Source: Eledone cirrhosa
Lineage: Eukaryota
Direction: 5' to 3'
Length of the DNA: 64,000 nucleotides
Assembly: GCA_964016885.1 (NCBI GenBank)
Contig: OZ024741.1
Location: 110,856,001-110,920,000, forward strand
Positions 4,039 through 64,000 of this stretch are shown here, piece after piece. The position numbers were made by a program, and so were the translations under genes. The notes below the pieces were generated by a model that made no database searches, was not told the origin of the DNA, and worked only from the letters and a program-made list of their open reading frames with translations. Numbering within the stretch: the first letter of the stretch is position 1; each line of letters begins with the position of its first letter.

Positions 4039-7000
4039 GTAATTACAAAAGAAAAGAATGAGCCCTCGATATGTAAACAGTTAATTTATAATACTTAAAA
4101 TACATCACATCCAAGCATATGATTTTGTCAGTACTCAGAGTATCCTGATGGTATCTGATTAATTGTAGCAGATTAATCTCAAGTGCACCATCAATCGCCT
4201 GCCTTTATGAAAAATTCTTTTTCATAAAAGGTATCTGGAAGGATGCTCTTCCTGACACTAACCCTTTTAGTCACTTCTGACATGCAGTGATAGTGTACCT
4301 ATTGTAAACTAGATACATAGGTGTGTTAATGTTATCAATGAAACCCACTCCCTAGCTTCGATTGTCTACATGATGCTGTATTTTTCAGAAGATGGTACAA
4401 AGTCAAAGAGTTGGAAAGAAAAAATTCGTTTCAAAAACAAAGGAAGTAACCAAGCCCCAGTCCCTGAAGAAGCAACTGGTTCTTTTGGGGTTCATCTTGA
4501 AGTCTGTATGCCTTCACCTTATAAGGAAGTGAGTAGCCTTCACAACCACCACCCCCACATCATTATTACCACTTCCACAACACCACCTTTACAACATCAT
4601 CTTTTCAACACTACCTTCACAACACCACTTTCATAACGTATAATCTTTACAACACACCATCTTCAAAAACACACCTTCACAATAAGCCACCTTCACAAGC
4701 ACAACTCCTTCACATTATCTTCACAACACCACTGCCACAAACACTACTTCACAAAAAAAACTTTCACATATACTACCTTCACAACACCACCTTCTCACCA
4801 TGTCATCTTCACAACACCACTGCGACAAACACTACTCCCACAACACCACCTTCTCAGCATGTCATCTTCACAACACCACTGCCACAAACACTACTCCCAC
4901 AACACCACCTTCACAACATAATACACTTTTATTTTTTACTCCAAAAGTTATTTTCGCTCATTTGTTTATTCAAGATGAGCTTGATGTAAATTAATTAATC
5001 AAAATGTAAGCATTATTGATTATATTTTTTGTTAATGAAATATACATTGAAAAAATGTTTGATCTCTGCAAATTCTTTGGGTATTCTTTTAATATATATA
5101 TACAGATACACACATACACACACACAATATATATATGTATTTATTCATTTATTTCCTCTATATCCAGTCTGTGCCATTCATAGTTGATCTGTGCACCAGT
5201 ATCGTAGAGACCCGAGGACTGAAGGTTGTTGGTGTTTACAGAATTCCTGGCAATAAGTTAGTCATTTCTAATATGCAGGAGGAACTTAACAAGGTACGTA
5301 CTATCTACTATAACACATACATACACACACATCCATACATATTTAAGAATAGGTGTACTATATACCTGCATGTCATAAGAGGCAACTAAAAGGTGTAAAA
5401 AAAAAAGGACTTCTAGCTGAAAACATTACTTCAAAGACCCTTCAGAGGAATCCCATTTTGGCCACTTGTATTTGCAATCATTCTTTCAATCCTTACCCAA
5501 GATTCATGACCATAGGTAAAAGTAGGCACAAACACCAAATTGAAGATAGCTTTTACAGCCACCTCCTTTCTTGTATCAAAATTAGAAATCATTATTGTTG
5601 TTGTTATGCAAATATTATTGTTGTTGATAGCCTCTGTTGGTTGGTATATAGGGGCCTCAACAGATCCTTATTTCACTGCTATATATTGATAGGCAACCCC
5701 TGCTATATAGGGGCCTCAACAGATACTTATTTCACTGCTACATATTGATAGTCCCTATTGGGGCCTGAACAGATGCTTATTTCACTGCTATATATTGATA
5801 GCCCCTATTGGGGCCTCAACAAATACTTATTTCACTGCTATATATTGATAGGCAACCCTTGCTATGTAGGGGCCTGAACAGATACTTATTTCACTGCTAT
5901 ATATTGATAGTCCCTATTGGGGCCTGAACAGATGCTTATTTCACTGCTATATATTGATAGCCCCTATTAGGGCCTGAACAGATACTTATTTCACTGCTAT
6001 ATATTGATAGCTTCTATTGGTTGCTTTATAGAGGCCTCAACAAATCCTTGTTTCACTGCTATGTTGTCTTCTTTTCTCCAGGGTCTCGACTACATCAACC
6101 AAGAAAATGAGAAATGGCAAGATGTGAATGTAATCAGTAGTTTGTTAAAGTCTTTCTTCCAGAAACTTCCGGAGCCATTAGTTACCAATGGTCAGTATAC
6201 ATTGCTTTCTCTTTCTCTCTCTCTATCTATCATTGTCTCCCTCTCTCTCCCTACCTCACACACACACACATATATATAAAACATTGTCTCAAAATAGTCT
6301 GTTCAACCCATGCCAGCATGGAAAAGTGGACATAAAAATGATGTCATATGTATGTTTGTGTGTATGTGTGTAAGTATGCATCCATGTGTGTTTGCTGCAC
6401 CACTATATACATATATTTGTACAGATTGCTATCTCTCTCTCCCTCTCTATCTTATATCATGTATTTGTTGTGCCCCACTATACCTCTACCTCCACAATGC
6501 AATGCACACCAGTACAATCCCATTGTAATGTACACAACTATATCACAACCCACCACCACTACTACTACACCAACACTACCACCACAATATAATGTAAACC
6601 ACCATAACTACGCTACCACCACAATGTAATGTAAACCACCATAACTACACCACCACCACCACAATATAATGTAAACCACCATAACTACACCACTACCACC
6701 ACAATATAATGTAAACCACCATAACTACACCACTACCACCACAATATAATGTAAACCACCATAACTACACCACTACCACCACAATGTAATGTAAACTGCC
6801 ATAACTACACCACTACCACAATGTAATGTAAACCACCATAACTACACCACCACCACCACCACAATATAATGTAAACCACCATAACTACACCACTACCACC
6901 ACAATATAATGTAAACCACCATAACTACACCACTACCACCACAATATAATGTAAACCACCATAACTACACCACTACCACCACAATGTAATGTAAACTGCC

Positions 7001-10000
7001 ATAACTACACCACTACCACAATGTAATGTAAACCACCATAACTACACCACCACCACCACCACAATATAATGTAAACCACCATAACTACACCACTACCACC
7101 ACAATATAATGTAAACCACCATAACTACACCACTACCACCACAATGTAATGTAAACCACCATAACTACACCACTACCACCACAATATAATGTAAACCACC
7201 ATAACTACACCACCACCACCACAATGTAATGTAAACCACCATAACTACACCACCACCACCACCACAATATAATGTAAACCACCATAACTACACCACTACC
7301 ACCACAATATAATGTAAACCACCATAACTACACCACTACCACCACAATGTAATGTAAACCACCATAACTACACCACTACCACCACAATATAATGTAAACC
7401 ACCATAACTACACCACTACCACAATGTAATGTAAACCACCATAACTACACCACTACCACCACAATATAATGTAAACCACCATAACTACACCACCACCACC
7501 ACAATGTAATGTAAACCACCATAACTACACCACCACTACCACAATATAATGTAAACCACCATAACTACACAACTACTACCACAATATAATGTAAACCACC
7601 ATAACTACACCACTACCACAATGTAATGTAAACCACCATAACTACACCACCACTACCACCACAATATAATGTAAACCACTATAACTACACCACTACCACC
7701 ACAATATAATGTAAACCACCATAACTACACCACCACAACTACCACAATATAATGTAAACCACCATAACTACACCACCACCACAATATAATGTAAACCACC
7801 ATAACTACACTACCACCACAATATAATGTAAACCACCATAACTACACCACCACCACCACAATATAATGTAAACCACCATAACTACACCACCACAATATAA
7901 TGTAAACCACCATAACTACACCACCACCACAATATAATGTAAACCACCATAACTACACCACCACCACCACAATATAATGTAAACCACCATAACTACACCA
8001 CCACTACCACCACAATATAATGTAAACCACTATAACTACACCACTACCACCACAATATAATGTAAACCACTATAACTACACCACTACCACCACAATATAA
8101 TGTAAACCACCATAACTACACCACCACTACCACCACAATATAATGTAAACCACTATAACTACACCACTACCACCACAATATAATGTAAACCACCATAACT
8201 ACACCACTACCACCACAATATAATGTAAACCACCATAACTACACCACCACAACTACCACAATATAATGTAAACCACCATAACTACACCACCACCACCACC
8301 ACAATATAATGTAAACCACCATAACTACACTACCACCACAATATAATGTAAACCACCATAACTACACTACCGCCACAATATAATGTAAACCACCATAACT
8401 ACACCACCACCACCACAATATAATGTAAACCACCATAACTACACCACCACCACCACAATATAATGTAAACCACCATAACTACACCACCACCACCACCACC
8501 ACAATATAATGTAAACCACTATAACTACACCACTACCACCACAATATAATGTAAACCACCATAACTACACCACCACAACTACCACAATATAATGTAAACC
8601 ACCATAACTACACCACCACCACAATATAATGTAAACCACCATAACTACACTACCACCACAATATAATGTAAACCACCATAACTACACTACCACCACAATA
8701 TAATGTAAACCACCATAACTACACCACCACCACCACAATATAATGTAAACCACCATAACTACACCACCACCACCACAATATAATGTAAACCACCAAAACT
8801 ACACCACCACAACTACCACAATATAATGTAAACCACCATAACTACACCACCACCACCACCACCACCACAATATAATGTAAACCACCATAACTACACTACC
8901 ACCACAATATAATGTAAACCACCATAACTACACTACCACCACAATATAATGTAAACCACCATAACTACACCACCACCACCACAATATAATGTAAACCACC
9001 ATAACTACACCACCACCACCACAATATAATGTAAACCACCATAACTACACCACCACCACCACAATATAATGTAAACCACCATAACTACACCACCACCACC
9101 ACAATATAATGTAAACCACCATAACTACACCACTACCGCCACAATATAATGTAAACCACCATAACTACACTACCACCACCACAATATAATGTAAACCACC
9201 ATAACTACACCACCACCACCACAATATAATATAAACCACCATAACTGCACCACCACCACCACAATATAATGTAAACCACCATAACTACACCACTACCACC
9301 ACAATATAATATAAACCACCATAACTGCACCACCACCACCACAATATAATGTAAACCACCATAACTACACCACTACCGCCACAATATAATGTAAACCACC
9401 ATAACTACACTACCACCACCACAATATAATGTAAACCACCATAACTACACCACCACCACCACCACAATATAATATAAACCACCATAACTGCACCACCACC
9501 ACCACAATATAATGTAAACCACCATAACTATACCACTACCACCACAATATAATATAAACCACCATAACTGCACCACCACCACCACAATATAATGTAAACC
9601 ACCATAACTACACCACTACCGCCACAATATAATGTAAACCACCATAACTACACCACCACTACCACAATATAATGTAAACCACCGCAATATAATGTAAACC
9701 ACCATAACTACACCACCACTACAATATAATATAAACCACCATAACTACACCACCACTACCACAATATAATGTAAACCACCATAACTACACCAATACCACC
9801 ACAATATAATGTAAACCACCATAACTACACCACTACCACCACAATATAATGTAAACCACCATAACTACACCACCACTACCACAATATAATGTTAACCACC
9901 ATAACTACACCACCACCACCACAATATAATGTAAACCACCATAACTACACCACCACAATATAATGTAAACCACCATAACTACACCACCACTACCACAATA

Positions 10001-13000
10001 TAATGTAAACCACCATAACTACACCACCACCACCACAATATAATGTAAACCACCATAACTACTCCACCACAATATAATGTAAACCACCATAACTACACCA
10101 CCACTACCACAATATAATGTAAACCACCATAACTACACCACTACCACAATATAATGTAAACCACCATAACTACACCATCACCACAATATAATGTAAACCA
10201 CCATAACTACACCACCACTACCACAATATAATGTAAACCACCATAACTACACCACTACCACAATATAATGTAAACCACCATAACTACACCACCACCACAA
10301 TATAATGTAAACCACCATAACTACACCACTACCACCACAATATAATATAAACCACCATAACTGCACCACCACTACCACAATATAATGTAAACCACCATAA
10401 CTACACCACTACCACCACAATATAATGTAAACCACCATAACTACACCACCACTACCACAATGTTATGTAAACCACCATAACTACACCACCACAATATAAT
10501 GTAAACCACCATAACTACACCACCACCACCACAATATAATGTAAACCACCATAACTACACCACCACTACCACAATATAATGTAAACCACCATAACTACAC
10601 CACCACTACCACAATATAATGTAAACCACCATAACTACACTACCACCACAATATAATGTAAACCACCATAACTACACCACCACTACCACAATGTAATGTA
10701 AACCACCATAACTACACCACCACCACAATATAATGTAAACCACCATAACTACACTACCACCACAATATAATGTAAACCACCATAACTACACCACCACCAC
10801 CACAATATAATGTAAACCACCATAACTACACCACCACCACCACAATATAATGTAAACCACCATAACTACACCACCACCACCACAATATAATGTAAACCAC
10901 CATAACTACACCACCACCACCACAATATAATGTAAACCACCATAACTACACCACCACTACCACAATATAATGTAAACCACCATAACTACACTACCACCAC
11001 CACAATATAATGTAAACCACCATAACTACACTACCACCACAATATAATGTAAACCACCATAACTACACTACCACCACAATATAATGTAAACCACCATAAC
11101 TACACCACCACTACCACCACAATATAATATAAACCACCATAACTACACCACTAGCACCACAATATAATGTAAACCACCATAACTACACCACTACCACTAT
11201 AATGTAAACCACCATAACTACACCACCACTACCACAATATAATGTAAACAACCATAACTACACCACTACCACCACAATATAATGTAAACCACCATAACTA
11301 CACCACCACCACCACAATATAATGTAAACCACCATAACTACACCACAGCTACCACAATATAATGTAAACCACCACCACCACAATATAATGTAAACCACCA
11401 TAACTACACCACCACTACCACAATATAATGTAAACCACCATAACTACACCACCACTACCACAATATAATGTAAACCACCATAACTACACCACCACCACCA
11501 CAATATAATGTAAACCACCATAACTACACCACTACCACCACAATATAATATAAACCACCATAACTACACCACCACTACCACAATATAATGTAAACCACCA
11601 TAACTATACCACCACCATAATATAATGTAAACCACCATAACTACACCACCTCCACAATATAATGTAAACCACCATAACTACACCACCACCACAATATAAT
11701 GTAAACCACCATAACTACACCAACACCACCACAATATGATGTAAACCACCATAACTACACCACTACCACAATATAATGTAAACCACCATAACTACACCAC
11801 TACCACAATATAATGTAAACCACCATAACTACACCAACACCACCACAATATGATGTAAACCACCATAACTACACCACTACCACCATAACTACACCACCAC
11901 TACCACAATATAATGTAAACCACCATAACTACACCACCACCACAATATAATGTAAACCACCATAACTACACCACCACCACCACCACAATATAATGTAAAC
12001 CACCATAACTACACCACCACCACCACCACAATATAATGTAAACCACCATAACTACACCACCACCACAATATAATGTAAACCACCATAACTACACCACTAC
12101 CACCACAATATAATGTAAACCACCATAACTACACTACCACCACAATATAATGTAAACCACCATAACTACACCACCACCACCACAATATAATGTAAACCAC
12201 CATAACTACACTACCACCACAATATAATGTAAACCACCATAACTACACTACCACCACAATATAATGTAAACCACCATAACTACACCACCACTACCACCAC
12301 AATATAATGTAAACCACCATAACTACACCACTACCACCACAATATAATGTAAACCACCATAACTACACCACCGCTACCACCACAATATAATGTAAACCAC
12401 CATAACTACACCACCACCACCACAATATAATGTAAACCACCATAACTACACCACTACCACCACAATATAATGTAAACCACCATAACTACACCACTACCAC
12501 TATAATGTAAACCACCATAACTACACCACCACTACCACAATATAATGTAAACAACCATAACTACACCACTACCACCACAATATAATGTAAACCACCATAA
12601 CTACACCACTACCACCACAATATAATGTAAACCACCATAACTACACTACCACCACAATATAATGTAAACCACCATAACTACACTACCACCACAATATAAT
12701 GTAAACCACCATAACTACACCACTACCACCACAATATAATGTAAACCACCATAACTACACTACCACCACAATATAATGTAAACCACCATAACTACACCAC
12801 CACCACAATATAATGTAAACCACCATAACTACACCACTACCACCACAATATAATGTAAACCACCATAACTACACCACCACCACAATATAATGTAAACCAC
12901 CATAACTACACCACCACCACAATATAATGTAAACCACCATAACTACACCACCACCACAATATAATGTAAACCACCATAACTACACCACCACTACCACAAT

Positions 13001-16000
13001 ATAATATAAACCACCATAACTACACCACTACCACAATATAATGTAAACCACCATAACTACACCACTACCACCACAATATAATGTAAACCACCATAACTAC
13101 ACTACCACTACCACAATATAATGTAAACCACCATAACTACACTACCACCACAATATAATGTAAACCACCATAACTACACCACTACCACCATAACTACACC
13201 ACCACTACCACAATATAATGTAAACCACCATAACTACACCACCACCACAATATAATGTAAACCACCATAACTACACCACCACTACCACAATATAATGTAA
13301 ACCACCATAACTACACCACCACTACCACAATATAATGTAAACCACCATAACTACACCACCACCACAATGTAATGTAAACCACCATAACTACACCACTACC
13401 ACAATATGATGTAAACCATTACCACCACCACCACCCCCATCATCTAATGAACACCACTGTTTATTACAGAGTTATACCAGAGCTTCATCAATGCTAACCA
13501 AATAGAAAATCTACAAAAGAGAATGTTAACATTGAAAAGAATCATACATCAGTTACCTGATGTCCACTTTGAGACATTTCGGCATTTGGCACTTCACCTG
13601 CGTAAGGTCGCTGACCACAGCCATCTGAACAAGGTATGGCCTGTCCTCTTGATGTGACTGTATGTATGTATAGTGTTTTGTTCATGTGACTGTCTGTATG
13701 TATAGTGTGTTGTGGTGTGACTGTATATATAGTGTGTTGTTGGTGTGACTGTATGTATAGTGTGTTGTTGGTGTGGCTGTATGTATAGTGTGTTGTGGTG
13801 TGACTGTATGTATAGTGTGATGTTGGTATGACTGTATGTATAGTGTGTTGTTGGTGTGACTGTATGTATAGTGTGTTGTTGGTGTGACTGTATGTATAGT
13901 GTGTTGTTGGTGTGACTGTATGTATAGTGTGTTGTTGGTGTGACTGTATGTATAGTGTGTTGTGGTGTGACTGTATGTATAGTGTGTTGTGGTGTGACTG
14001 TATGTATAGTGTGTTGTTGGTGTGACTGTATGTATAGTGTGTTGTTGGTGTGACTGTATGTATAGTGTGTTGTGGTGTGACTGTATGTATAGTGTTGTTG
14101 GTGTGACTGTATGTATAGTGTGTTGTTGGTGTGACTGTATGTATAGTGTGTTGTTGGTGTGACTGTATGTATAGTGTGTTGTTGGTGTGACTGTATGTAT
14201 AGTGTGTTGTTGGTGTGACTGTATGTATAGTGTGTTGTTGGTGTGACTGTATGTATAGTGTGTTGTTGGTGTGACTGTATGTATAGTGTGTTGTGGTGTG
14301 ACTGTATGTATAGTGTGTTGTTGGTGTGACTGTATGTATAGTGTGTTGTTGGTGTGACTGTATGTATAGTGTGTTGTTGGTGTGACTGTATGTATAGTGT
14401 GATGTTGGTGTGACTGTATGTATAGTGTTGTGGTGTGACTGTATGTATAGTGTGTTGTTGGTGTGACTGTATGTATAGTGTGTTGTTGGTGTGACTATGT
14501 ATAGTGTGTTGTTGGTGTGACTGTATGTATAGTGTGTTGTTGGTGTGACTATGTATAGTGTGTTGTTGGTGTGACTGTATGTATAGTGTGTTGTTGGTGT
14601 GACTGTATGTATAATGTGTTGTTGGTGTGACTGTATGTATAGTGTGTTGTTGGTGTGACTGTATGTATAGTGTGTTGTTGGTGTGACTGTATGTATAGTG
14701 TGTTGTTGGTGTGACTGTATGTATAGTGTGTTGTTGGTGTGACTGTATGTATAGTGTGTTGTGGTGTGACTGTATGTATAGTGTGATGTTGGTGTGACTG
14801 TATGTATAGTGTGTTGTTGGTGTGACTATGTATAGTGTGTTGTTGGTGTGACTGTATGTATAGTGTGTTGTGGTGTGACTGTATGTATAGTGTGTTGTTG
14901 GTGTGACTGTATGTATAGTGTGTTGTTGGTGTGACTGTATGTATAGTGTGTTGTTGGTGTGACTATGTATAGTGTGTTGTGGTGTGACTATGTATAGTGT
15001 GTTGTGGTGTGACTGTATGTATAGTGTGATGTTGGTGTGACTGTATGTGTAGTGTGTTGTGGTGTGACTATGTATAGTGTGTTGTTGGTGTGACAGTATG
15101 TATAGTGTGTTGTGGTGTGCCTGTATGTATAGTGTGTTGTTGGTGTTACTGTATGTATGGTGTGACTATGTATAGTGTGTTGTTGGTGTGACTGTATGTA
15201 TAGTGTGTTGTGGTGTGACTGTATGTATAGTGTGTTGTTGGTGTGACTGTATGTATAGTGTGTTGTTGGTGTGACTGTATGTATAGTGTGTTGTGGTTTG
15301 ACTGTATGTATAGTGTGTTGTGGTTTGACTGTATGTATAGTGTGTTGTTGGTGTGACTATGTATAGTGTGTTGTTGGTGTGACGATGTATAGTGTGTTGT
15401 GGTGTGACTGTATGTATAGTGTGTTGTTGCTGTGACTATGTATAGTGTGTTGTTGGTGTGACTATATGTATAGTGTGTTGTGGTGTGACTATATGTATAG
15501 TGTGTTGTGGTGTGACTATATGTATAGTGTGTTGTGGTGTGACTGTATGTATAGTGTGTTGTTGGTGTGACTGTATGTATAGTGTGTTGTTGGTGTGACT
15601 GTATGTATAGTGTGTTGTTGGTGTGACTGTATGTATAGTGCATTGTTGGTGTGACTGTATGTATAGTGTGATGTTGGTGTGACTATGTATAGTGTGTTGT
15701 TGGTGTGACTGAATGTATAGTGTTGTTGTTGTGACTGTATGTATAGTGTTGTTGTTGTGACTGTATGTATAGTGTGTTGTTGGTGTGACTGTATGTATAG
15801 TGTGTTGTGGTGTGACTGTATGTATAGTGTGTTGTGGTGTGACTGTATGTATAGTGTGATGTTGGTGTGACTGTATGTATAGTGTTGTGGTGTGACTGTA
15901 TGTATAGTGTGTTGTTGGTGTGACTGTATGTATAGTGTGTTGTTGATGTGACTGTATGTATAGTGTGTTGTGGTGTGACTATGTATAGTGTGTTGTTGGT

Positions 16001-54559: not shown

Positions 54560-54591
<32 letters not shown>

Positions 54592-54595
<4 letters not shown>

Positions 54596-54815
54596 GTGAA
54601 AGAGTGAAGAATAACATGGTCGGCTGTACAAAAAGGGGTTTTATGTACAGTATTAACAATTGTTTCATTGATCAGGTGAGTCTAAAGGCCGCAAATCACT
54701 CGAAATTGCGCCACTCGACCTTAAATACAGTATGGGTCACTTGATCAAATCATCGGAATACTGGAGCGGGTAACACATGGCATTGGTTTTTATAGATACA
54801 TCGGAGAATCAAGGT
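54592..54815 (-). repeat. ~200-bp repeat carrying the hammerhead motif (inverted partner of 59550-59748)
   Basis: Reverse complement aligns with 59550-59748 over the full length. Confidence 0.9.
54648..54763 (-). ncRNA. Second copy of the CCGAUGA hammerhead-like motif
   Basis: Reverse complement has identical stems and core; longer stem II loop. Confidence 0.65.
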
Positions 54816-55170
54816 TGAGAGATTTAATGATCCAACTGATCATTAAATCAACATCATGAATCTCCCAACCTTTCTTTCACTCTCTCTATAACCGCATCAC
54901 CTCCATTAAGATAAAACAATCAGTCTACCAGACCTTAATCACCCATATATCATCACTGCCCCTTTCACTTTTTATTCTCTATCTGTCTATCTACTGCTTC
55001 CCCGTCCTTACTCCTACCCTTTATGTCTCATCCTCGAATCCTTATTCTTATTCTCTGTCTCCTGTTCCTTATCTCTTTCTCTCTTACTTTTTATTTTTCA
55101 TTTAATCCTCTGATATTTTATTGTACCTCTTGCATTTTATTTCACCAATTTATAAACTCTATACACTACA

Positions 55171-58100
55171 TATCATCATCATCATCGTTTAACATCCATC
55201 TTCCACGCTAGCATGGGTTTAGATGGGAATTGTCCCACGGGAGGCAAGATTGGTCGTCTTGCTCGTATAGGACTGTTTGGCGGGTTTTCTACGGCTGGAT
55301 GCCCTTCCTAACACCAACCACGTTTACAGTGTGGAGTAGGAGGTTTTTACCGTGTTACCTACACGGCCACATTACAGCGTGGACTGTGTGTTTTTTTGTC
55401 GTGGCACCTACACGACCAAATTACAGCGTGGACTGTGTGTTTTTTTTTTGTCGTGACACCTACACGACCTCATTTATTTAGGACTGGATGTTGTGGTACC
55501 AACATAATTATACAGCGAAAGGGGTGGTGTAGATGGGGATGGGGGTGTATTTTTGGTTAGGAGGTGCCTACTGACTGTAGGTTTCGCTTTGTACTTAGGC
55601 AAGGCGGGTCTTCTGTATTACTGCGCAGTGCCAAAGATCTCGGTCCAGTGACATTGTCTTGGAGAGGTGTAAGTGTGTAAGGTCGGAATTTATCAAATCG
55701 TCCCAGGTTTTTCTGGGTTTGCTTACTCCGTAGCTTCCATCAGTTTTGATCGCCCTGCACTTTTTTATACAGCTGTCATCTTTCATGCGCATCACGTGAC
55801 CATACCAATGTAGTCTTCTTTCGAGTAAACAGCATCTGATCCCTCTTATTCCTAATTTCTCACTTAGTTCATTTATGCTTTGCCATTCACATATATTACT
55901 ATTACACATCCAACGGAGCATGCAAGCTTCGTTCCTCTCCAATCTGCGCAGATCCTCTGCACACAATGCTCATGTCTCATTGCCATGTAACATTGCTGTT
56001 CGTATGCAGGCATCATACAGTCTGCCTTTCATTTTTAGAGAGAAAACTTTAGCGGCCAATAGTGGTATAAGCTTTCTGAACTTTTTCCATCCCGTTCTGA
56101 CTCTGGCTACTGTACTTTCAGAGCACCCTCCACCATTTTATCACCCAGGTAACGGAAGGTATCCCCTATTTCTATAGAAACATCTGGGCAATGGAAGGAG
56201 CTAGTATCCTGTGGGCACTTGCTACTACTTATTGCACCTGAGAACCGGACACATTTAAAATCTATGTTCTTAGTTAGCTTACCTGTGATCCCACTACATC
56301 TTTTATGCACGCATACTTTGCATTTGGGACATAAAATGGAGTTTCTGCCTACTCCTTTCCTACACACTGAGCATGGCCATTTCCCAGAGGGGACCAGTGC
56401 CCTATTTTCCTTCCTACATACTAAAACTTTAGTCTTAGACAAGTTAATTTTAAGGCCCTTTGATTCTAGGCCATGCTTCCAAGTTTGGAATTTCTTCTCT
56501 GATTCAGCTATGAGCGTTAGATCATCTGCGTATAGAAGTTCCCATGGGCAGCCGGTCTTGAACTCCTCTGTTATAGCCTGAAGGGCAATAATAAATAGGA
56601 GGGGGCTAAGGACAGAGCCCTGATGAACACCAACTTTTAAGCTAAATTTTTCACTATATTCGTTGTTAATTCTAACCTTGCTGACTGTTACTTTATACAC
56701 GGCTTGTAAAGCTCTCACGAGCCATTCATCAACACCTAGTTTTCTAAGAGCCCACCAGATAATGGAGCGGGGGACTCTGTCAAAAGCTTTCTCCAAGTCT
56801 ACAAAAGCTAAGTATAGGGGTTTACTTTTAGCTAGGTACTTCTCCTGTAGTTGTCGTACAATGAAAAGAGCGTCCGTGGTACTTTTACCAATTTGCTCTC
56901 TGATTAGTTGCGCTATAACTTTTTCTGTGACCTTCATGACCTGGTCAATTAATTTAATGCCTCTATAGTTTCCCCTATCTCGGGCATCTCCTTTACCCTT
57001 GTAGCAGTTAATGATGATGATGCTACGCCAGTCATTTGGTATGACCCCATTCTGTATGACTTGGTTTACTATCCAGGTGACCATAGTGTGTCCCACCAAT
57101 CCAGATGCTTTCAGCATTTCAGCAACTATCTCTGAAGGCCCAGCTGCTTTGCCTGTCTTCATATCTTTGATTGCCTTACTTATTATACTACCTTCAACTT
57201 GCACTGCTGGTCCCTCTATTGGATCGATTTGGGGCAGACTATCTTTTTCCCACTTATTCTCCTCATTTAGTAGCCTCTCGTAGTGACACTTCCAAGCTAC
57301 CTTCTTATCAGCGTCAGTGATGGCAAGTACACCATCATCATTATGGACACACTTCTCCCCGATAATATCACGGTTTTCATTGACACATTGTCTAGCAATC
57401 CTGAACACCTCACGTTTTGGGTCCTCGCGTTGTAGAACATGCTTGAACTTTCTTTCCTCTGCTTCTTTTCTTGCAAGGTACACTTGTCTCCTAGCTTCCC
57501 TCCTGGCCACTTGATAGTGTCCTCTACTTCCCCCATCACGCCATACTTCCCAAGCCTGCTTTTTGGCCTTGATTGACTCCCCCACCTTACTATTCCACCA
57601 CCTTGTTACTCTCCTCCTGCCTATAGGTCTGCTCCAGCCACAGATTTCATCTGTCGCCTTCAGCAGGTTAACTTTCAGGAATTCCCACTGTTCCTCTATA
57701 CTGTACGCCTCTAATTGGTCTTCCTTACTGTCAAAAGCATCAAGTAATATGCTTTTAAATTTGTTACTGGTTGTGGCGTCCTTTAACTTCCATATTCTTC
57801 TTCTCAGGGTAGTCCTCCTCTGTTGTCGAGTATGTATCGTCCTGACTATGAGGTCACTAACTATGAGGCTGTGTTGGGAGGTGCATTCTTCACGGGGGAG
57901 GGATTTAGTGTTTACAACAGACACTTTGTCACGTCTTCTGGTAAGGATATAATCTATCTGACTGGCGTGTTCCTCTGATCTATAGGTGATCAAGTGATTG
58001 TCTCATTTTTTGAAGTTTGTGTTACAGATAGTTAGGTTATTTGCGTCACAGAATTCCAGGATTCTGAAGCCTTCCTCATTTCTGGTACCAAACCCGTAGC

Positions 58101-59060: not shown

Positions 59061-59239
59061 AGAGGAGATTGTTTTTGAGGGTCTGACAGAATTATCGAAA
59101 TTGACCACCGACAGGTTCATTTTATACTTGCTAAGAGAGAGAGGGAGGCATCATATATTTCGTATTTCTTTTCGTGTTATTGTTATCATTAATGTCATCA
59201 CTATTTTACACATCCACTTACTCACCATTATAACTTCAA

Positions 59240-59530
59240 CCGCCGAGGTTGACTTTGCCTTTCATCCTTACGAGGTCGATAAAATAAAGTACCAGTAATG
59301 TACTGGGTATTTGCTGGCCTTGTGCCAAAAGTAGAAACAATTATAACTTCAACCACCACCACTACTACTATTATCAGTAACCGTATTTTGTACTTATTTT
59401 TTACATCTTTATCATTTTCATTTTTACTTATTTATACTTTTATTATTGTTTATTATCTTTTCGATAAAATAAAGTACCAGTGAGGCACTGGGTAGTTGCT
59501 GGCCTTGTGCCTAAAGTAGAAACAATTATT
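59240..59530 (+). mobile_element. Two headless family-4 SINE fragments in tandem
   Basis: CCGCCGAGGTTGACTTTGCCTTTCATCC...GGCCTTGTGCC..AAGTAGAAACAATTAT at 59240-59345; 3' half repeated at 59460-59530. Confidence 0.7.
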
Positions 59531-59549
59531 GATGTTATTGTTTTCATTC

Positions 59550-59748
59550 ACTTGATTCTCTGATGTATCTATAAATACCAATGCCATGTGTTACACCCTC
59601 CAGTATTCCGATGATTTGATCAAGTGACACACTGTATTTAAGGTCGAGTGATTAGCGGGCTTTAGACTCACCTGATCAATGAAACAATTGTTAATACTGT
59701 AAATAAAACCCCTTTTTGTACAGCGGACCATGTTATTCTTCACTACTA
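59550..59748 (+). repeat. ~200-bp repeat carrying the hammerhead motif
   Basis: Inverted copy of 54592-54815. Confidence 0.9.
59601..59699 (+). ncRNA. Type I hammerhead-like ribozyme, CCGAUGA core variant with extended stem II
   Basis: CAGUAUU CCGAUGA U-UUGAUCA-A-GUGA-(40 nt)-UCAC-C-UGAUCAA-U GAAA C-AAUU-G UU AAUACUG: stem I 7 bp perfect, stem II 7+4 bp. Confidence 0.65.
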
Positions 59749-59902
59749 TTACTCCAAGAACGACCTGCATGGGAATTTTCGCAAACTCACTACCTAACTA
59801 AGGAAACTTCTTGTTGAGTCAAACAACGCCGTACGTTTAAATTATCCACAGTACAGAGTACTCACAATCTCTAACTGGATTACCTAAAGCGATAACTTTT
59901 TA

Positions 59903-59960
<58 letters not shown>

Positions 59961-59964
<4 letters not shown>

Positions 59965-61495
59965 GTAAAGCCTTTGACAGAGTTCCACGTGCTGTAATCT
60001 GGTGGGCTCTTAGAAAACTAGGAGTAGATGAATGGCTTGTGAAAGCTGTACAAGCCATGTATAGGGGAGCAGTCAGCAAAGTTAGGATTAGCAATGAGTA
60101 TAGCGAGGAATTTAGCGTACAGGTTGGGGTCCACCAGGGCTCTGTTCTTAGCCCTCTCCTGTTCATCATAGTCCTGCAGGCAATAACGGAGGAGTTTAAG
60201 ACCGGATGCCCATGGGAACTCCTGTATGCTGATGACCTCGCACTTATAGCTGAATCTATGGTAGAACTAGAGAAAAAATTCCAAACTTGGAAGCAGGGAC
60301 TAGAAAGAAAGGGTCTCAAAGTCAACCTGACAAAGACTAAGGTCCTTGTAAGTAGACGAGAAAACAGAACCCAGATCCCCTCAGGGAAATGGCCTTGCTC
60401 AGTATGTAGGAAAGGTGTAGGTAGGAACTCCATTCTCTGTCCCAAATGCAAACAATGGGTACACAAGAGATGTAGCGGGATCTCAGGAAGCTTAATTAAG
60501 AATGTAGGCTTCACATGCAGCAGCTGTGCTGGGACAGCAAGCAGCAAACGACCACAGGAAACAAGTACCACCAATCTCTGGGAGGGCTCTGTAGAAACAG
60601 TAGACAGCTTCTGCTACCTAGGTGACCGAATTAGCAGCGGAGGTGGGTGTTCAGAAAGTACAATAACTAGGGTAAGAACGGGATGGAAGAAGTTCAGGGA
60701 ACTACTGCCACTGCTAGCTGCAAAAGGCTTCTCCCTCAAAATGAAAGGCAGGCTGTATGATGCGTGTATCCGAACAGCAATGTTACATGGTAGTGAGACC
60801 TGGGCGCTGAAGGTGGAAGACTTACGTAGATTAGAAAGAAACGAAGCCTGCATGCTCCGATGGATGTGTAATAGTAATATACGCGAACGACAAAGCATAA
60901 ATGAATTAAGAGAGAGACTGAGCATAAGAGGAATCAAATGCTGTGTGCAGGAGAGGCGGTTGCGTTGGTATGGACATGTGATGCGTATGAAGGATGACAG
61001 CTGCATAAAAAGGTGCAGAGCTCTAGAAGTAAATGGAAACCGCGGAGTGGGGAGACCCAAGAAGACCTGGGATGAGGTGATAAAAGCCGACCTTACCCAA
61101 TTACACCTCTCAAAGGCAATGACACACGACCGTGACCTCTGGCGTCACGCAGTAATACAGTGTACCCGACCTCCCATGGGTACAAGCTGAAGCATATAGA
61201 CAATATGCCCCCACACCCTCCCACTGCAAGGTGGTCGTGGAGGTGCCACGGCAAAAAAGCACCCAACCCACACTGTAAAGTGGACGTGTAGGCGCCACGG
61301 AAAAAGCACCCAGGACTCACTATAAATGAGGTTGGTGTTAGGAAGGGCATCCAGCTGTAGAAATCAAGCCAAAATCAGTTCCTGTATGAGCAAGGCATGG
61401 TCAGCCGACCAGACACTGCCCACAAGAGGACAACCCGTCTAACCCATGCTAACATGGAAGAACGGACGTAAAACGGTGATGATGATGATGATGAT
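59961..61495 (+). mobile_element. 5'-truncated young RTE-clade LINE inserted in a (TA)n tract
   Basis: Starts at KAFDRVP, uninterrupted frame to stop at 61190 (LYADDL, Cys finger, RRLRWYGHV, GRPKKTW); 3' UTR; (TGA)n tail; (TA)n on both flanks. Confidence 0.95.
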
Positions 61496-63382: not shown

Positions 63383-63432
63383 CCATACCGAGAACAATTG
63401 TTTCACCTTAGCGGATCCTCAGCTCGTAATGG
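63383..63432 (-). ncRNA. Type I minimal hammerhead ribozyme in the Penelope 3' region
   Basis: Minus strand CCAUUA-CGAG CUGAGGA U-CC-GCUAA-GG-U GAAA C-AAUU-G UU CUCG-GUAUGG: full core, stem I 4 bp + 2x2 loop + 4 bp, palindromic stem III. Confidence 0.72.
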
Positions 63433-63594: not shown

Positions 63595-64000
63595 TCAATC
63601 CGGAGCCTTGTAGTTATGTAAGAGGTGTTTCCAGACGTGTGGACAACGTGTGAAGAATTCATTTCCCGTGTTTAGGCAATCACTATTGTGTAATCTCTTT
63701 AGAATATTTATTCGTTCATCAATACATAGTCCACACGACGCATTGCTCCTTGCGTATGGCTTGGACTTAGTGATGGCTTTCCATTGAATGGAGTAGTCTA
63801 TACTTGAATCCTTGAGGGACCATACGTGGCTCGCGAATTTCGTGGATGAACGTCTGTCCGGGTACCTAAAGGTCGACTGGTGATTCAGGAAGCGTTCCTT
63901 AAGTCGGCCCTCCGTCATACCCACATAGGATTTAACCTCCTGTGGTTGATTTGGTCGGTTGGAAGTGACCACAGCTTCATAAACTACAGCGGGTGTGTTG
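63595..64000 (-). mobile_element. Penelope-like element, GIY-YIG endonuclease C-terminus (continues beyond the window)
   Basis: Minus frame AVVYEAVV...SYVGMTEGRLKERFLNH...LASH-like FASHVW...CGLCIDE...LN..NE...CPH. Confidence 0.88.

Follow-up and report, generated by a model that had tools for sequence, protein, structure and literature searches.

What does a hammerhead-like motif with an altered core do in a repeat of Eledone cirrhosa, and what kind of element carries it? A preliminary description of the stretch analysed here (hereafter the window, 64,000 nucleotides) had read the motif as a non-canonical type I hammerhead ribozyme within a small non-coding repeat, and had taken the repeat for a retrozyme-like element or solo pseudo-LTR (pLTR), non-autonomous and mobilised in trans by Penelope machinery. 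We examined the motif in the window, the family to which its carrier belongs and the conservation of the ribozyme across that family.

The motif and its carrier in the window

Every position that had been proposed for the stems, the core, the palindrome and the cleavage site matches the sequence (Table 1). The motif has the three-stem topology, the conserved core and the NUH triplet of a type I hammerhead at all points except position 4, and the results support a hammerhead of the kind found in Penelope-like elements (PLEs), with a short palindromic stem III. A custom hammerhead descriptor that accepts C or U at position 4 matched the window twice, at 59608 (+) and 54756 (−), and had no matches when the 26-kb non-satellite part (38001-64000) was dinucleotide-shuffled 200 times. 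The minimum free energy fold of the window motif forms stems I and II while the core boxes pair with each other, and its stability is unexceptional (z −1.41, with 16 of 200 shuffles equally stable). An Rfam scan returned no hammerhead match at 59601..59699; since it likewise missed the canonical motif of a sister family at 63389-63426, this result is uninformative on C4. The stem II arm was outlined from the family alignment, pair counts and the inner helix recovered by RNAalifold. According to the family alignment, the GUGA/UCAC helix described earlier within stem II is peculiar to the window copy and is not the pairing of the family, and 15 nt of the apical arm that are present in most copies are missing from the window copy.

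Table 1. Coordinates of the features discussed, in window positions.
Feature	Position	Strand	Remarks
Type I hammerhead motif	59601..59699	+	stem I, C4 core, long stem II, GAA, palindromic stem III
Stem I strands	59601-07/59693-99	+	checked against sequence
Core boxes	CCGATGA 59608-14; GAAA 59681-84	+	checked against sequence
Stem II arm	59615..59680	+	U-U base, outer helix, internal loop, inner helix
Self-complementary stem III, predicted dimer interface	59684..59691	+	duplex energy −6.4 kcal/mol
U17, predicted cleavage after	59692	+	checked against sequence
5'-truncated Hydra-clade PLE copy, subfamily A	59150..59906	+	3' UTR end, hammerhead, tail; without ORF
Tail, ~160 nt	59746..59906	+	in full-length elements leads into the next unit's 5' UTR and ORF
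(TA)n target tract at 3' end	59907..59960	.	placed from the ends of copies
TATA-like box, candidate pLTR promoter	59570..59575	+	32 nt before A59602
Inserted fragment of another abundant repeat	59241..59339	+	14-bp duplication 59227-40/59340-53
Second, shorter fragment of the same inserted repeat	59462..59524	+	interrupts the PLE copy
Second hammerhead-region copy, short form	54590..54813	-	C3 at 54756; without tail; ends in (TA)n
3' UTR piece, same family	54832..55137	+	~80-89% identity to L075
Sister-family hammerhead, canonical U4, 2-bp stem II	63389-63426	-	second Hydra-type PLE family
Sister-family endonuclease remnant	63703-63930	-	

The term small non-coding repeat turned out to be too narrow, because homology extends over 59150-59906 and the family carries an ORF. 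The window copy reaches ~450 nt upstream of the motif into the 3' UTR and is collinear with an endonuclease-bearing copy, L075, in three blocks of 91, 76 and 87% identity. The 3' UTR piece near 55 kb is inverted relative to the hammerhead at 54.7 kb.

Other repeats lie in and around the copy. The very abundant one inserted at 59241-59339 and 59462-59524, which we take to be SINE-like, is carried at matching sites by two independent PLE copies (L005 and L008), and its 3' end resembles GAAACAATT of the hammerhead. LINE-type RT frames, presumably RTE-like, lie in opposite orientation at 59966-61300 (+) and ~55600-56790 (−) and are ~77-82% alike. Large strand-asymmetric minisatellite arrays with ~40-bp and 25-28-bp units occupy ~6000-13500 and 13500-37500. 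About 200 kb away (G000:C2:111116900-111120120) the window copy recurs, together with its flank, in inverted orientation and nearly identical.

The element family and its copies

A search of the 3.0 Gb genome (1,796 contigs) gave at least ~2,500 first-look candidates for the hammerhead region, which is a lower bound and not a copy number. Several kb of common flank are shared by 23 of the first 30 loci, which we counted as one segmental duplication. In L010-L030 a segment of at least 3 kb with one PLE copy has been duplicated at 95-99% identity across many contigs, often within ~100 kb of a contig end, and may be subtelomeric. Longer copies run upstream into an endonuclease frame (L009) and an RT frame, and both frames are present in L100 and L101. 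When copies are nearly complete, the 160-nt tail recurs before the ORF and is followed by the 5' UTR and the start codon, which is the partial-tandem layout of a pLTR. At one locus, L271, an intact 794-aa ORF with RT and a GIY-YIG fold lies between two C4 hammerheads 3,538 bp apart, and the two hammerhead copies are identical over 390 of 390 nt. This element belongs to subfamily C (see below); compared with the endonuclease-side frame of a copy from subfamily A, it is 59% identical over 162 aa. An assembly artefact is unlikely to lie behind this association of ORF and hammerhead, because it is seen at many loci. The motif therefore lies in the 3' UTR/pseudo-LTR of an autonomous RT and GIY-YIG element and is almost certainly a PLE-pLTR hammerhead; mobilisation in trans of a non-autonomous unit found no support, given this ORF and a window copy that reaches the 3' UTR.

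Pfam and PDB sequence searches returned nothing useful for identifying the protein. An AF2 model of the L271 ORF (mean pLDDT 79) had its structural matches among RTs, with TERTs at ranks 2-9 (E ~1e-8). The C-terminal domain aligned with I-TevI (Z 10.2, rmsd 2.3, 89 aligned), T4 EndoII (Z 8.2) and the UvrC GIY-YIG domain (Z 6.8), all three within the top four; in Foldseek the same GIY-YIG families came out on top, although at E values above 0.2.

Craig et al. (2021; PMC8557442) characterise the Hydra clade by the RWK and DKT motifs, a CxCX5C linker, CxxC and CxH, and (TA)n insertion. Both RWK and DKT are present in the L271 ORF, as are CxxC and CxH in its endonuclease; the linker is found in L200, L202 and L206, and in L271 with a Tyr at the third Cys. 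Insertion into (TA)n was seen for 27 of 28 copies selected by the 211 nt downstream of the motif (hereafter tail-picked copies). On these motifs and the insertion site we assign the family to the Hydra clade; an identity with Neptune, suggested at first by motifs, was dropped against this definition. The family shows the structural traits of endonuclease-bearing PLEs: pLTRs made up of partial tandems, truncation at the 5' end, inverted 5' copies and a tail at one end. With the published Hydra-clade PLEs it shares the clade motifs, a C-terminal GIY-YIG domain, (TA)n targets and a type I hammerhead near the 3' end; it differs in a unit length of 3.5 kb (generally <3 kb in that clade) and in a tail of ~160 nt, against the 30-40 bp described for PLEs (PMC8557442). 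The hammerhead and the ORF start of Hydra-1_Obim also differ from those of the family, in a comparison made by eye only. This Hydra-clade family is apparently undescribed. Beside Hydra copies, at L066:7966-9990 (−) and L206:6309-7499 (−), there are long open frames that belong to other PLE-like families and show, by eye, motifs like those of RT or GIY-YIG.

All except one of the 28 tail-picked copies end at one motif followed by (AT)n. The 5' end differs from copy to copy, and for many copies there is an inverted partner, which stops ~160 nt short of the 3' end. Fixed 3' ends lie downstream of the cleavage site, at distances of ~55 and ~215 nt, in UA-rich sequence able to pair with a nicked (TA)n. 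No 5' junction fell at the cleavage site, either in 30 loci picked by the 5' UTR or in the 28 tail-picked subfamily A copies; in subfamily F, 2 of 30 copies start at the cleavage site or 2 nt after it, too few to count. In subfamily A, 24 of the 28 have their start within the ribozyme or at its edge and are of solo-pLTR size, and to this extent part of the earlier reading survives; the window copy itself runs into the 3' UTR. The 5' junctions of 13 of the 28 cluster at −8..−4 from C3, on the 5' margin of stem I; the TATA-like box is 32 nt away. This cluster may be a pLTR transcription start or may reflect cDNA fold-back at stem I. The junctions near −13 that a promoter would predict in subfamilies F and C were weakly represented, in 2 of 30 copies each, and subfamily C has no TATA box. 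We also considered, and discarded, a 3' splice site where stem I begins: YAG is present in A, B, D, E and H and not in C, F and G, and no shared upstream exon was seen.

Core, position 4 and stems across subfamilies

To compare the ribozymes of the family, we reduced 244 hits to 125 that cover the whole motif after removal of duplicates and sorted them by best seed into eight subfamilies (A-H) of 3 to 34 copies. Their majority sequences are 58-91% identical; the subfamilies are related in a ladder-like tree, and the majorities are not independent. C3, G5, A6, G8, G12, A13, A14, A15.1 and U16.1 are identical in all eight majorities, while U, A and G occur at N7, and U, C and A, but never G, at N17; as judged from the alignment, the variation at positions 7 and 17 fits the hammerhead rules. 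The core is better conserved than the rest of the region (9 of 11 core positions invariant vs 64 of 170 elsewhere, Fisher p 0.005 over the eight non-independent majorities), but the downstream flank is conserved too, with 28 of 51 positions invariant, and the core is not far above it. Each subfamily carries some change expected to weaken catalysis. A9 is U or C in all five G copies, with U as the majority; in F the base of stem II is A-A; and the stem III palindrome, which is the majority sequence in 7 of 8 subfamilies and is found in the sister family as well, is broken in the youngest subfamily (duplex energy −0.7 vs −6.4 kcal/mol).

Position 4 is C in the majorities of A, C, E and H and U in those of B, D, F and G. 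The tail-picked copies that cover the core, an unbiased set, have C4 in 17/17 cases in A and 27/27 in C, and U4 in 19/19 in F, which rules out C4 as an artefact of decay. TG at the C4 CpG occurs in 3 of 28 A copies, a rate similar to that of other CpGs (14 of 140); CpG decay would thus account for these three A cases and not for U4 throughout F. In a 38-row tree C is nested in F, and A, E, H and B lie beside D, so that at least three changes at position 4 are needed. Subfamily C is the youngest: among the matches listed, 32 of 40 have one and the same score, with 99.5% identity to the query, and lie on many contigs; flanks differ among the 25 loci that were examined. A narrow pattern search, whose gap was too short, picked up 3 deletion variants only.

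The sister family allowed us to separate what is particular to this family from what is normal in the clade. It has 34% protein identity to L271 and ~3,500 first-look candidates, and it carries U4 in 20 of 20 loci; the U-U pair at the stem II base, the palindrome and GUU are common to both families. By our own count of the 26 Hydra rows in the published table (PMC8557442), U-U occurs in 14, GUU in 10 and GUA in 12 (GUU or GUA in 22), all with U4 and a loop 2 of ≤10 nt. Two features that had been called unusual, the U-U pair and the GUU triplet, are thus ordinary for the clade, and only C4 and the long arm stand out. The other two claims of this kind were borne out: C4 is a true feature of the family, as the majority state of four subfamilies including the youngest, and stem II forms a covarying arm of ~80 nt where the published Hydra rows have their short loops. 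The family accordingly departs from the canonical hammerhead (CUGANGA core, short loop 2), and C4 and the long arm look new relative to the Hydra hammerheads in that table.

Other published hammerheads are close in part. Those described by Cervera and de la Peña (2014; PMC4209133) in PLEs are likewise of type I and located in pLTRs, with a helix II enlarged to 7-8 bp, an unpaired base after A9, a palindromic helix III, a predicted dimer, and solo and inverted copies; in the text consulted, the core variant given is U3-A8 and not C4, and no multi-helix stem II arm is described. U4C and U10.1-U11.1 are both natural hammerhead variants according to Perreault et al. (2011; PMC3088659), who report that viroid U4C is considerably less active in vitro and slow, yet supports infectivity. 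A rare variant in viroids, U4C is here fixed in the master lineages of an animal retrotransposon, where it arose at least twice. We found no report of U4C in PLEs in the literature surveyed, outside which lie the work of Lünse et al. on PLE hammerhead variants and the supplements of the other hammerhead papers.

Covariation was assessed in an alignment of 31 rows, comprising the window copy and up to four copies per subfamily; because rows were chosen for intact core boxes, core invariance in this alignment is by construction. RNAalifold recovered only seven pairs, of the inner and apical helices, and none of stems I-III, so the structure counted was drawn by hand from the alignment. It pairs 82.9% of cells, vs 26-43% when the partners are slid. 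Two-sided changes were found in 98 cells, a value reached in 0 of 500 shuffles; they fall on 13 of 34 pairs, a count that 81 of 500 shuffles reach. Stems I and II both show compensatory changes, although the number of pairs with two-sided changes is not above that of shuffles. All 31 rows preserve the second pair of stem I, as C-G, U-A or U-G; outer stem I is irregular because of bulges, and in the register used its pairs are preserved in just 9 to 13 of the 31. Pairing reaches 90% in the inner helix of the arm, which is the part that RNAalifold found unaided. All eight subfamilies have the long arm; its internal motif is invariant and equals the core in conservation, and the arm is likely a conserved structural or protein-binding module.

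Probable cleavage and its possible role

Our main reading, with a probability of roughly 0.6, is that the motif is the pLTR hammerhead of an autonomous Hydra-clade PLE and probably a slow self-cleaving RNA that depends on dimerisation. Low, dimer-dependent activity has been reported for PLE hammerheads (PMC4209133). Where a transcript runs across two pLTRs, the palindrome of stem III would join its two hammerheads into a dimer, and cutting after GUH would yield a unit-length RNA, perhaps circularised. The element's endonuclease would nick a (TA)n target and the RT would prime at the UA-rich sites ~55 or 215 nt downstream of the cleavage site. Dimers between this family and the sister family are conceivable, because the palindrome is shared. 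Since integrated copies run through the cleavage site, the template would have been uncut or re-ligated there, which fits weak cleavage and also fits none. Weak cleavage would then cost the element little, and this would explain why U4C, A9U, a mismatch at the base of stem II and a broken palindrome could become subfamily majorities.

Residual self-cleavage, which on the whole we favour, competes mainly with a reading in which the element and its origin are the same and the hammerhead no longer cleaves, its fold being kept as a structural signal (for RT binding, priming or template handling) or through overlap with a promoter. Such a loss would agree with the different catalysis-weakening changes borne by different subfamilies, with copies that run through the cleavage site, with a flank and an internal arm motif as conserved as the core, and with the proliferation of Naiads without canonical hammerheads (PMC8557442). 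It sits poorly with nine core positions unchanged in eight majorities that are only 58-91% identical and with an N17 that is never G, a pattern that closely matches the catalytic rules, and we regard it as possible at clearly less than even odds. A bolder proposal, which we consider doubtful, is that the lineage, a recently active one, repeatedly detuned its hammerhead (U4C twice, A9U, the stem II mismatch and the broken palindrome) and kept the arm as a docking site through which its own RT or a host protein may switch cleavage on.

The origin proposed at the outset, a retrozyme-like or solo-pLTR family moved in trans by Penelope machinery, could draw on the 24 of 28 tail-picked A copies that consist of ribozyme and tail only, and on the 13 junctions beside the TATA-like box, given that short RNAs initiated in the pLTR could be a source of such copies; a 2026 preprint (Li et al.) also derives retrozymes from pLTRs. 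The non-LTR retrozymes of Cervera and de la Peña (2020; PMC7229834) and of that preprint resemble the present motif in being of type I, low in GC and PLE-related. Retrozymes are, however, short tandem repeats without coding capacity, whereas this family has an RT and endonuclease ORF, intact in L271; no head-to-tail hammerhead repeats of 150-450 bp, their defining layout, were seen in the loci examined, which are the top matches among thousands of candidates. The window copy reaches the 3' UTR, endonuclease-bearing copies exist in the same subfamily, and the junction cluster is weak in F and C (2/30 each), all of which makes this origin improbable. A chance resemblance in an AT-rich repeat is less credible still: the modest fold score and the absent Rfam match would suit it, but Rfam also missed the canonical sister motif, shuffled sequence yielded no descriptor match, covariation is present, the motif lies where a PLE hammerhead is expected, and the comparison of subfamilies already contradicts it.

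A hammerhead in a PLE pLTR is a well-known context, so the surprise is moderate and lies in the variant features, C4 and the long arm. What hammerheads do in PLEs that bear an endonuclease has been stated to be unclear (PMC8557442). The family described here offers a ready test set, in which young, intact elements carry ribozymes with differences at defined positions of the core, and the sister family is a canonical, short-armed control in the same genome. Whole PLE lineages escape descriptors built on CUGANGA and short loops, a point that matters for clades reported to be without hammerheads. Should the detuned reading be true, the eight subfamilies and the sister family would make up a natural allelic series for the function of Penelope hammerheads.
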